From: Dictyostelium discoideum | Taxonomy: Eukaryota | Length of the DNA stretch: 64,000 nucleotides | Direction of reading: 5' to 3' | Assembly: GCA_000004695.1 (NCBI GenBank) | Contig: CM000150.2 | Coordinates: 3,168,001-3,232,000, forward strand | Shown: positions 62,291 to 64,000 of the stretch, piece by piece | Numbering within the stretch: position 1 is the first letter of the stretch | Layout: each line of letters begins with the position of its first letter | Made by a program: the position numbers and the translations under genes | The notes under the pieces: model-generated | What the model saw: the letters and a program-made list of their open reading frames with translations, nothing else | The model's database searches: none | Told to the model about the DNA's origin: nothing

Positions 62291-64000
62291 CAAAGAACCA
62301 ATTATTTAAAAAACCAATTGCAATAACTGTGCTTTCGTTTAACCCATTGTGTTTATTCTTCACTAATTTCATTAGTAATAGTTTTCAAATTTGAAAGTAT
62401 CAGATGATGTCAAGCTTTTTGATAAATTCTGGATAAAAAATATAAATAATGAAAAATGATTTTAATTAGTATATAATACACTATTACAAAATTTTAATTG
62501 ATAAATGTATAACATACAGCAATTAGTCCACTATCATTTCTAGCTATCTCTTGTAATTCATTGGTAAACTTGTTTTCTTTTGGATTTGCTGAACTAAGAA
62601 TTCTACCAAATCTAATTAAACTTGAAAATCTTTTCATTTCTTTTTATTTAGTTTATTTTTTTTTTTATTTTTTTTTTTTAATTATTTGTTTAAAACTATT
62701 GTATTTTAAATTAATTGTTTTTTTTTTTTTTTTTTTTTATTTCTGATTGTGCTTTTATAGTTTAAAAACATATGTACTGACACTTTAGTAGGTGTCTGTC
62801 CCTAAAAATTTCTTATTCATAAATTATAATTTTCAGACTCAGATATTTTTTTTTTTAAAGTGTCAGTCTCCTTTTTTTTTTTTTTATTTTTTAAATATGG
62901 GTAATTAAGAGTGTCAGTATTAAAATAAATAAAAAAAGATCCAATTTAATATTAAATTCTATTTACAAAAAAAATTATTTTGTTTTTATTTTATTTTAAT
63001 TTATTTTTTTTTTTTAAATACGTTTCAAATAATTCCTAATAAAATCCTGCACAAAGAACCAATTATTTAAAATACCAATTGCAACTAATGGACTTTGATT
63101 ATATGTATGACATGGATGTACTTTAGCTATTGAAAAAAATAAAAAGCCTTAAACTTTGAAGATATCGAATGTTGCAAACCCTCTCTCTATCAAAAACTAA
63201 ATAAAAAATAAAAAAATGAAAATGATTAGTAATTTATTAAATATAATATATAAATAAATATTTGATTGACATGTAAAACTTACAACAATTAATTCATCTC
63301 TTCCACTAGCTTTATATTGTAGTTTAAATTAATTGAGAAATAAATTTTGATCTCTTTGTTGGATTAGTAATAATAAAAATTGCACCAACGCCAATTAAAC
63401 CTATTATTGTTCTTGAATACATTTGCTTTTGTCACAAAAATAATAAAAATAAATAAATAAATAAATAAATAAAAAATTTTAAACTTAAAATACCAAAAAC
63501 CAATTTTATTTTTTTATTTTTTTTTTTGATTTATTTTTTTTTTTTTTTTTTTTTTTGATATTTCCTTTTTTAAAAAATAATGCACTTCTAGGTTCCTTTT
63601 TTTCATATTAAATTTTAAATATTTGAAATTAATAGGGGGTTTATTTATAAAAATATAATAATAATTAAAATTTTTAAAAAAAACCCCTAAAAAATTTTTA
63701 TCTGGGGTATATATATAATTTAAATTATAATAAAAAAAAAAATAAAAAAAAAAATAATAAATAAATTTTAGTGTTAATAGAAAGTTTGTTTTATTTTATT
63801 TTATTTTATTTTATTTTATTTTATTTTATTTTATTTCAAGTACATATTTTAAAAATAAACTAAACATTTAAACTTTTAATAAAGAACCAATTCTTTAAAA
63901 AACCAATTGCAACAACTGAATCTGTACTATGTGGTGGAGGATTTAAAAATGCTAATGAAAAAAAGATATGATCTTCAATTGTGAACAAATCTAATAATGC
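62291..64000. repeat. Tandem array (>=3 units, ~760-830 bp each) sharing a highly conserved ~45-nt core with two CCAAT boxes; array continues past window end
   Basis: Core occurrences are 62291-62340 (acaaagaaCCAATtatttaaaaaaCCAATtgcaataactg), 63049-63095 (cacaaagaaCCAATtatttaaaataCCAATtgcaactaatg) and 63882-63925 (taaagaaCCAATtctttaaaaaaCCAATtgcaacaactg). Flanking sequence between cores is only weakly alignable. One example is the acatcatctgatactttcaaatttg / acattcgatatcttcaaagtttaagg segment. Confidence 0.55.
62372..62637 (-). CDS. Small 2-exon ORF inside tandem unit 1 (58 aa), hypothetical
   Basis: Minus strand. Exon 1 is 62518..62637 (MKRFSSLIRFGRILSSANPKENKFTNELQEIARNDSGLIA), with a GTATGT donor. 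The acceptor is ttatccag. Exon 2 is 62372..62428 (NLSKSLTSSDTFKFENYY*). The equivalent region of unit 2 (minus 63280-63422) has a homologous exon (…NPTKRSKF…KASGRDELIV + GTAAGT) that carries an in-frame stop. This suggests a small gene family with pseudogenised members. Confidence 0.25.

Follow-up and report, generated by a model that had tools for sequence, protein, structure and literature searches.

The three head-to-tail units at the end of the window (the whole 64,000-nucleotide stretch of Dictyostelium discoideum chromosome 1 DNA analysed here) are very probably tandem paralogues of one small gene, and the core they share is the coding sequence of a conserved C-terminal hairpin motif. 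We put the probability of this reading at about 0.85. The units are minus-strand genes with two exons each, for a protein of ~95 aa. This protein is predicted to start with a short hydrophobic helix ending in an invariant T-N-P. Two helices and a four-stranded sheet would follow, with (V/I)-(A/G)-x-G-x-(L/F)-x-x-W-F-F in the final hairpin of the sheet. The double CCAAT in the core would then be the reverse complement of hairpin codons, i.e., ATT-GGT (Ile-Gly) and AAT-TGG (Asn-Trp). Strong purifying selection probably acts on the hairpin, the remainder of the protein appears nearly neutral (dN/dS about 1) and the organism's extreme codon bias would keep synonymous sites alike too, which together would make the core stand out. 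An apparent non-coding element would in this way be resolved into ordinary biology: a small-gene birth-and-death cluster with a constrained hairpin that spells CCAAT twice on the opposite strand.

The three units contain a near-identical core of 32-36 nt, starting at 62292, 63053 and 63881. The pattern AAAGAACCAATTnTTTAAAAwACCAATTGCAA has three exact matches in the 64-kb window (62292-62323, 63053-63084 and 63881-63912), all on the plus strand with 0 mismatches, and none is expected by chance (100 shuffles gave 0 matches). The copies lie 761 and 828 nt apart, each with two CCAAT pentamers separated by 15 nt. On the minus strand, the cores comprise 12 codons each and read VIAIGFLNNWFF (unit 1, 62292..62327), LVAIGILNNWFF (unit 2, 63053..63088) and VVAIGFLKNWFF (unit 3, 63881..63916), exactly as translated in the initial annotation. 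The gene bodies can be aligned end to end at ~57% column identity. That annotation had also described a core conserved above its flanks, and the core is indeed the longest invariant block in the three-unit alignment, but other patches are common to the units too: AATCCAA (the NP of the TNP motif) and TTTTTTTCAnTAG (FFS-L/I-A).

The array had been thought to run off the window, which is true of unit 3 alone; the array itself ends at three units. A second D. discoideum assembly (L001), 99.8% identical to the window across the final 2.9 kb, has three cores with none further upstream, so its array stops at unit 3. Across the 64-kb window and 22 kb of L001, the core is seen only within the three ORF ends, and metagenome contigs scanned for it gave 0 matches. 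A PH-domain gene flanks the array.

The two-exon ORF described earlier for unit 1 was found again, and so was the in-frame stop described for unit 2. Exon 1 of unit 1 is at 62518..62637 on the minus strand (ATG at 62637-62635, 40 codons, MKRFSSLIRFGRILSSANPKENKFTNELQEIARNDSGLIA), and the orthologous exon is intact in L004, a diverged D. discoideum strain. The N-terminal segment of unit 1 is no longer hydrophobic, with a mean Kyte-Doolittle value of 0.36 vs 2.4-2.7 in units 2 and 3. Its 89-nt intron (62429..62517, minus strand, GTATGT...CCAG, phase 0) has the same position as in all other family members. What follows is a remnant of exon 2 (62271..62428, minus strand), intact in L004, where the exon-1 frame reads NLSKSLTSSDTFKFENYY and ends at a TAA (62372-62374). 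In this exon, the reverse complement TAATGAAA (62367-62374) stands in place of TTTCATTA and the length differs by a net 1 nt, changes that put the unit-1 core in another frame; compared with L004, the exon has also lost 3 nt in frame. A second intron that might rescue the frame was considered and rejected, as there is no plausible GT..AG pair of Dictyostelium length and the L004 exon is uninterrupted.

Exon 1 of unit 2 (63284..63422, minus strand, ATG at 63422-63420, beginning MYSRTIIGLIGVGAIFIITNP) contains a 10-nt insertion (about 63322-63331, TAATTTAAAC) that causes a frameshift and a premature TAA, and neither L004 nor D. cf. discoideum has this insertion. After an 87-nt intron (63197..63283, minus strand, GTAAGT...TTTAG), exon 2 (63014..63196, minus strand) reads FLIERGFATFDIFKV, a stop, GFLFFSIAKVHPCHTYNQSPLVAIGILNNWFFVQDFIRNYLKRI and then its own stop at 63014-63016. 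The internal stop is a TAA (63149-63151); the codon at this position is GAA in L004 and AAG in D. cf. discoideum. Unit 3 is the sole intact copy in this strain, with a full product of 96 aa. Only the 3' part of its exon 2 is in the window (63860..64000, minus strand, ALLDLFTIEDHIFFSLAFLNPPPHSTDSVVAIGFLKNWFFIKSLNV, stop TAG at 63860-63862); exon 1 and a 124-nt intron lie beyond it, at positions 6793-6921 and 6922-7045 of L001, respectively.

Judged from their sequence, units 1 and 2 are pseudogenes with recent disabling lesions in this strain: a small inversion plus frameshift in unit 1, and the 10-nt insertion plus GAA>TAA in unit 2. It is these lesions that make the two reading frames look "different". 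They occur in the window and in L001 alike; L004 retains an intact ORF in each of its three units. Four units are present in D. cf. discoideum, where unit 1 is broken by different lesions and unit 2 is intact, and the examined loci of three other species have one copy each. The locus is a clean example of what appears to be very recent gene decay, with pseudogenisation that is lineage-specific inside the D. discoideum species complex.

The conceptual unit-2 protein matches DDB_G0269652 of D. discoideum AX4. We could reproduce the protein of that gene model (P0001, 119 aa) exactly from window coordinates, and doing so requires a 777-nt "intron" (63127..63903, minus strand) whose donor (GTTTTT) falls within the unit-3 core and whose acceptor falls within exon 2 of unit 2. 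Introns in this gene family are 69-124 nt long. We judge the 777-nt intron to be a gene-prediction artefact and the DDB_G0269652 model to be a probable chimera, in which unit 3 has been joined to the 3' part of pseudogene unit 2. Neither the correct 96-aa product nor the intact paralogues found in other strains appear in a collection of 15 billion proteins, and a literature search found no mention of DDB_G0269652. Any knock-out, tagging or proteomics work that relies on the current model would be misled.

An exhaustive phmmer and profile search returned matches of 93-113 aa, all of them dictyostelid, and a profile search of PDB sequences returned nothing relevant. The intact copies compared were three from L004, three from D. 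cf. discoideum and one each from D. firmibasis, D. purpureum and T. lacteum. All of them have a canonical GT..AG intron at one conserved position, and the single-copy orthologues of other dictyostelids share this position at non-syntenic loci. Family proteins are 89-99 aa long, with 3-6 residues before the hydrophobic helix and 3-13 after the WFF. Eight residues are invariant family-wide (T, N, P, F, S, G, W and F), and in the core peptide, V-x-A-I-G-x-L-x-N-W-F-F, the G, W and last F are invariant across Dictyostelia. Outside the motifs, dN/dS is about 1 (0.84-1.6). This fits an alternative that the initial annotation had named, a conserved C-terminal peptide motif in a fast-evolving and partly pseudogenised family of small proteins, and comparative genomics points to three ordinary paralogous genes, with the core at the 3' end of their coding sequence. 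A signal peptide at the N-terminus was considered and rejected: judged by the -1/-3 rule, the residue before T-N-P (I, A, H, L or S) is not suited to signal-peptidase cleavage. Scanned against Pfam and NCBIfam, the D. discoideum sequences gave only a weak match, to ATP19 (E 0.02-0.08), which we take as a TM-helix artefact.

The reading preferred earlier was a cis-acting DNA or RNA element. As a DNA element, the core would serve as a twin CCAAT/NF-Y site, an enhancer of the next downstream unit or an origin, and its coding would be incidental. The paired pentamers in 3/3 units speak for this, as does the location of each core, which precedes the ATG of the next unit by ~415-460 nt. So does the unit-1 core: the AX4-type strain and D. 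cf. discoideum agree at 36/36 positions, at a neutral identity of about 0.78-0.81, though both copies are disabled. We infer that independent, recent pseudogenisation explains this last point, and the unit-1 core may have some residual DNA-level or short-ORF function. The codons tell against a DNA element. Paralogues share 28/36 amino acids in the core vs 72/246 elsewhere, and where residues are identical, the same codon is used in 24/25 core cases vs 58/71 elsewhere (Fisher p=0.105), so with amino acids matched, codon identity in the core is not above that in the rest of the gene. With amino-acid conservation and Dictyostelium codon bias taken into account, the core's excess conservation vanishes. 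Core differences among unit-1 orthologues are synonymous only, and other species have lost a CCAAT wherever they carry a different residue ahead of the G or W: D. firmibasis has lost one of the two pentamers, while D. purpureum and T. lacteum have neither, yet keep G-x4-W-F-F with other codons (20/50 core codons the same). The confinement of the core to three ORF ends and the blank metagenome scan also count against a cis-acting element, which we hold to be very improbable.

Short-tract gene conversion among the copies could keep the core identical while the flanks drift, and the copies are suitably placed for it (tandem, in the same orientation and 0.8 kb apart), with a paralogue nucleotide identity of 91% in the core vs 57% elsewhere. 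However, the D. discoideum strains and D. cf. discoideum have kept the same unit-specific core variants (GGT-ATT in unit 2, AAG in unit 3), which implies that no homogenisation has taken place after these lineages split, and the few informative core sites group by unit, not by species. Single-copy species, which offer no partner for conversion, conserve the motif as well, making this explanation improbable. Scarcely credible is a core that belongs to a structured or small RNA, or that is the remnant of a degenerate mobile element or satellite. The units are head-to-tail repeats and the DNA around them is rich in low-complexity repeats, but there is no Rfam match at E<=1 (61000-64000), no fold beyond shuffles on either strand (z-scores of -1.4 to +1.3) and no terminal repeats. 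The exon-intron structure is conserved and shared with single-copy orthologues at non-syntenic loci, leaving the origin, satellite and mobile-element suggestions of the initial annotation unsupported. A tandem DNA repeat was likewise rejected: there are just three copies here (four in D. cf. discoideum), none past unit 3, and their similarity is restricted to exons and motifs. TRF, with a period limit of 500 nt that puts the 0.8-kb period out of its range, reported low-complexity arrays only.

With the core read as coding sequence, the protein itself can be compared with known families, and its closest resemblance is to Tim29 (TIMM29 / C19orf52), a subunit of the human TIM22 carrier translocase. 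The AF2-modelled fold, of medium confidence (pLDDT 69-72) and built on 8-sequence alignments, matches PDB 7CGP chain C: a single TM helix followed by an alpha/beta intermembrane-space (IMS) domain. This was the top Foldseek match (7cgp_C, E 0.01, probability 1.00, query-normalised TM-score 0.64), and the next had an E of 0.45. In Pfam, Tim29 (PF10171) is the best match of two members, both under the gathering threshold of 25: D. purpureum P0007 (17.1 bits, E 0.0041) and Acytostelium P0008 (12.1 bits, E 0.13). The D. discoideum sequences did not match the Pfam Tim29 HMM. Aligning the family to vertebrate Tim29 with hhalign gave an E of 1.3e-4 over 89 co-linear columns but a probability of 54%; the score of 29.7 compares with a maximum of 25.0 for 40 block-shuffled nulls and 13-15 for reversed controls. 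The matched columns are P-x4/5-F after the TM helix, S-L-x-Y/F and G-F-x3-W-W/F. The C-terminal-strand motif of Tim29, V-G-F-x-G-x-W-W, is invariant in 14 vertebrate Tim29 sequences, and in its family counterpart, (V/I)-(A/G)-x-G-(F/I/L)-x3-W-(F/V)-F, the G and W align to Tim29 G167 and W172.

We lean towards the family being a remote, minimal relative of Tim29, with a common fold and origin, in which case it would correspond to the transmembrane helix and intermembrane-space domain core of Tim29. The rival is convergence: a generic TM helix joined to a small NTF2/cystatin-like alpha+beta domain, in a dictyostelid-specific protein that is signal-anchored in the ER, secretory or in the outer membrane and has no kinship with mitochondrial import. 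This is a serious contender, if not the one we favour. All Tim29 scores are sub-threshold, there is no presequence (just those 3-6 residues before the hydrophobic helix), evolution is fast (dN/dS about 1) and one database labels the D. purpureum member DUF4359. Against convergence, Tim29 ranked first in three independent searches among 48,164 or 350,542 chains, it is the only recurrent Pfam match in the family, and a single co-linear alignment brings the invariant P, F, G and W of the two families into the same columns.

Function is a separate question from ancestry. The protein is predicted to be a single-pass membrane protein, possibly of the mitochondrial inner membrane, whose alpha/beta domain may act as a protein-protein docking module. 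An actual TIM22-associated role is doubtful. So is the stronger proposal that this is a true Tim29 homologue outside Holozoa, a "mini-Tim29" made up of the membrane anchor and the core intermembrane-space domain only, which would act together with the TIM22 translocase or another complex at the mitochondrial inner membrane; we regard this as unlikely. Tim29 has been reported as restricted to Holozoa or Metazoa (PMC7523481; PMC5455965). If the proposal were true, the Tim29 module would be older than the opisthokont-Amoebozoa split, which would contradict the published absence of homologues outside Holozoa (PMC7523481). It would also provide the first Tim29-like protein from outside Holozoa, in a genetically tractable amoeba, making the origin of carrier-translocase accessory subunits experimentally testable.

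Compared with known systems, the likeness to Tim29 consists of one TM helix with a conserved Pro immediately after it and a Phe 5-6 residues on, followed in both by two helices and a four-stranded sheet with a similar final hairpin (G-F-x-G-x-W-W in Tim29, G-(F/I/L)-x3-W-F-F in the dictyostelid family). The differences are of size and of flanking parts. Tim29 is about 260 aa long and the dictyostelid proteins about 95 aa, without the two insertions that Tim29 has within the domain. In Tim29, an N-terminal matrix helix contacts Tim22 and a C-terminal motif recruits Tim9/10a (10.1101/869289); the dictyostelid family has neither this helix (alpha1) nor the recruiting motif.

The likeness to DUF4359 (PF14271) comes from a UniRef name, "DUF4359 domain-containing protein", on the D. 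purpureum orthologue F0ZTP5. The members of DUF4359, an uncharacterised family, are small proteins of bacteria and eukaryotes, with a similar size and an N-terminal hydrophobic helix. Its Pfam HMM did not match any of 11 family members at E<=10, precomputed Pfam annotation is empty for all family members, and a literature search for DUF4359 found only an unrelated mention. As for a CCAAT box or NF-Y site, the pentamer does occur twice on the plus strand, but here it falls within the 3'-terminal coding part of genes, not in a promoter context, and the Ile-Gly and Asn-Trp codons account for it.

Tandem paralogue clusters that evolve by birth and death are common in the D. discoideum genome. The units described here share with them head-to-tail duplication, a common intron position, varying copy number and lineage-specific pseudogenisation. 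We see no essential difference, and the locus belongs to this category.

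The window is extremely AT-rich (14-33% GC per 2 kb), and the pattern AAAGAACCAATTnTTTAAAAwACCAATTGCAA occurs three times in its last 1.7 kb, at 62292, 63053 and 63881 (spacing 761 and 828 nt), where no copy would be expected by chance. This confirms the tandem repeat with a conserved core described in the initial annotation, whose minus-strand translations hold up, as do the two-exon ORF in unit 1 and its interrupted counterpart in unit 2. Beyond the three units, searches of the window, of L001 (another D. discoideum assembly) and of a metagenome collection turned up no further copy of the core. 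A minus-strand alignment of the units gives ~57% column identity over their entire gene bodies, with the core as its longest invariant block. The core's minus-strand codons are GTT ATT GCA ATT GGT TTT TTA AAT AAT TGG TTC TTT, i.e., those of the last conserved patch of a protein family (C-terminal G-x4-W-x-F); ATT-GG (Ile-Gly) and AAT-TGG (Asn-Trp) each give one of its two CCAATs when reverse-complemented. The core is therefore the 3' coding end of three paralogous genes in a rapidly evolving small-protein family, which had been offered as the alternative reading and is correct.

DNA past the window end was reached via the neighbouring 818-aa ORF (58604-61060, minus strand), which led to L001, 99.8% identical to the last 2.9 kb of the window. 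The array had been thought to run off the window: unit 3 does extend beyond it, but the array ends there, as L001 contains exactly three units and nothing similar to them upstream of unit 3. Unit 3 is complete in L001, where 43 codons in exon 1 and 53 in exon 2, separated by a 124-nt GTATGT..CAG intron, encode 96 aa. The 818-aa ORF is uninterrupted, with a PH domain (Pfam match on record) and long Asn/Gln/Ser homopolymer tracts, and it lies next to the array, on the downstream side, in both D. discoideum and D. cf. discoideum; in D. firmibasis it does not.

A cis-acting DNA or RNA element had also been proposed for the core. We used codon alignments of 10 intact genes, counting how often sequence pairs that share an amino acid also share its codon. 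Among the three paralogues of L004 (a diverged D. discoideum strain), the codon was the same for 24/25 shared residues in the core vs 58/71 elsewhere (Fisher p=0.105), and among those of D. cf. discoideum for 18/20 vs 93/108 (p=1). Dictyostelium codon bias alone therefore makes ~82-86% of synonymous codons identical, and codon identity in the core matches the rest of the gene. All that sets the core apart is the conservation of its amino acids (28/36 identical vs 72/246 elsewhere). D. purpureum and T. lacteum keep the peptide motif, but in comparisons with them codons agree in only 20/50 cases and both CCAATs are gone; D. firmibasis retains one. Neither Rfam (no match) nor RNA folding (no signal) pointed to an element in the core region, and the cis-element reading is not supported. 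Outside the motifs, dN/dS is 0.84-1.6 (Nei-Gojobori): the family is a fast-evolving small protein with a few fixed positions. The part of unit 2 exon 2 that precedes the core has an identity of 0.80 between L001 and L004, below the 0.88-0.93 of introns and spacers; together with a family dN/dS of ~1 or higher, this fits relaxed or diversifying selection better than simple constraint.

Two of the three paralogues are freshly pseudogenised in the window's strain, and L001 carries identical lesions. Unit 2 has a 10-nt insertion in exon 1 (~63322-63331), and its codon at 63149-63151 is TAA instead of the GAA or AAG of relatives. In unit 1 exon 2 (62367-62374), the TTTCATTA that L004 and D. cf. discoideum carry has given way to TAATGAAA, its exact reverse complement, and the length differs by 1 nt, so the exon-1 frame stops at 62372-62374, ahead of the core; this disabling lesion looks like a micro-inversion. 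The N-terminal helix of unit 1 has also lost its hydrophobicity in D. discoideum (Kyte-Doolittle 0.36-0.44 vs 2.0-2.7). In L004, whose introns and spacers are ~88-93% identical to those of L001, all units are intact ORFs (96, 98 and 97 aa). Four units are present in D. cf. discoideum (L002): the orthologues of units 3 and 2 are intact, as is an extra 89-aa copy between them (L002 5131-5503, core SVIAVGILENWYFI), while its unit 1 is broken in another way (a deletion in exon 1 with TAG, and a TAA in exon 2). Neither D. discoideum assembly has the extra copy, so copy number varies among very close lineages. Since units are intact or differently broken across these genomes, the duplications predate the lineage split, and decay has been recent and independent between lineages. 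Such decay would explain why broken copies retain a perfect core: that of unit 1 is identical at 36/36 positions between the AX4 type and D. cf. discoideum (neutral identity ~0.78-0.81), and its two differences in L004 are both synonymous. Orthologues share unit-specific core variants, so ongoing gene conversion is not needed.

The surrounding sequence has features of its own. Of the window's four GTGTCAG/CTGACAC heptamers, three cluster in 140 nt of the unit 2-unit 1 spacer (62777-62917), compared with ~1 expected in the whole 64 kb, and one pair forms the inverted repeat GTACTGACACTTTAGTAGGTGTCTGTCCC (around 62775-62805). Comparable islands of GTGTCAG and GACACCT lie upstream of units in L004 (~7340-7500) and L002 (~6490-6680), and upstream of unit 3 in L001 (~6588-6680); these may represent a promoter element common to the family. 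The 1.2-kb spacer at 61060-62290 consists almost entirely of A/T, including long stretches of (ATT)n and poly-T (e.g., 61440-61535), and has one G/C-bearing island, GGCGCACTCCCTCACAATTGTTGAACG (~61965-61992). Further away, ~430 nt separate a tRNA-Thr(AGT) gene (54819-54890, plus strand) from a pair of overlapping ORFs (222 and 224 aa; 53057-54390, minus strand), with a 121-aa ORF nearby (51882-52247, minus strand). None of the three has a Pfam match; their location beside a tRNA gene may indicate a Dictyostelium tRNA-targeted retroelement (TRE).

The locus itself is ordinary, and its remaining interest lies in an apparently mis-modelled reference gene and a possible first Tim29-like protein outside Holozoa. 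The gene is DDB_G0269652 (D. discoideum AX4, 119 aa), encoded on a contig of 4.92 Mb and the single protein match to the conceptual translation of unit 2. Its 119 aa can be rebuilt exactly by joining unit 3 up to ...SVVAI to the unit 2 tail across a 777-nt 'intron', with a weak GTTTTT donor within the unit-3 core (63903) and an acceptor within unit-2 exon 2 (63127). Because family introns are 69-124 nt, phase 0 and always at one position, and because the fusion duplicates part of the domain, we regard this model as a probable prediction chimera. Neither the 96-aa unit-3 product nor the proteins encoded by the intact units 1 and 2 in other strains occur in a 15-billion-sequence protein collection. 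Automatic annotation of newer assemblies is inconsistent too (L001 6793-7207, L004 6001-6400, L002 6001-7039): P0002 (111 aa) and P0010 (108 aa) keep 12-15 codons of the unit-3 intron, P0003 (113 aa, D. cf. discoideum) fuses unit 2 to remnants of unit 1, and 0/3 fit the 93-97-aa architecture conserved across other species.

Exhaustive phmmer (1.84 billion representatives) and profile (5.8 billion proteins) searches matched only dictyostelid proteins of 93-113 aa, plus one metagenomic contig. The proteins come from strains of D. discoideum and from D. cf. discoideum, D. firmibasis, D. purpureum, Polysphondylium violaceum, Tieghemostelium lacteum and Acytostelium subglobosum. In D. firmibasis, D. 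purpureum and T. lacteum the locus examined holds a single copy, with no tandem duplicates within 5-6 kb either side, and that of D. firmibasis is not syntenic with the window locus. Besides the C-terminal patch, the family alignment conserves T-N-P directly after an N-terminal hydrophobic helix, with a Phe 5-6 residues on, and a mid-protein F-S-x-A.

No family member has a significant Pfam match. The only recurrent weak one is Tim29 (PF10171; E 0.0041 in D. purpureum, 0.13 in Acytostelium), spanning the helix-N-P-F region in both. UniRef calls the D. purpureum member 'DUF4359', a label that the Pfam copy searched did not reproduce. In an AF2 model of the T. lacteum member (pLDDT 69), a TM helix is accompanied by two further helices and four strands. 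Foldseek with this model ranked Tim29 (7cgp_C) first, with E 0.01, probability 1.00 and a TM-score of 0.64 (normalised to query); the runner-up had E 0.45. Profile-profile comparison with Tim29, using the human sequence (checked against PDB) and its vertebrate orthologues, gave E 1.3e-4, probability 54% and 89 co-linear columns (family 7-96 vs Tim29 69-185). The hhalign score was 29.7, compared with 13-15 for reversed profiles and a maximum of 25.0 (median 19) for 40 block-shuffled Tim29 profiles. We consider it fairly probable that the family and Tim29 share ancestry or fold; a TIM22-related function is putative and rather unlikely. The main rival explanation is a small alpha+beta domain of a generic kind, carried on a signal anchor.

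Tim29 is described as combining a matrix helix and a single TM helix with an IMS domain, on which the Tim9/10a/10b hexamer docks, and a recruiting motif at the C-terminus (10.1101/869289). It is reportedly confined to Holozoa or Metazoa, outside which HMMer found no Tim29 (PMC7523481; PMC5455965). In the alignment, its invariant P78...F83 pairs with the family's T-N-P...F, C-S-L-V-Y-E with F-S-L-A-x-L, and L-D-V-G-F-V-G-R-W-W-V with V-A-I-G-F-L-x-N-W-F-F. The dictyostelid proteins would match only the TM helix and IMS domain core of Tim29.
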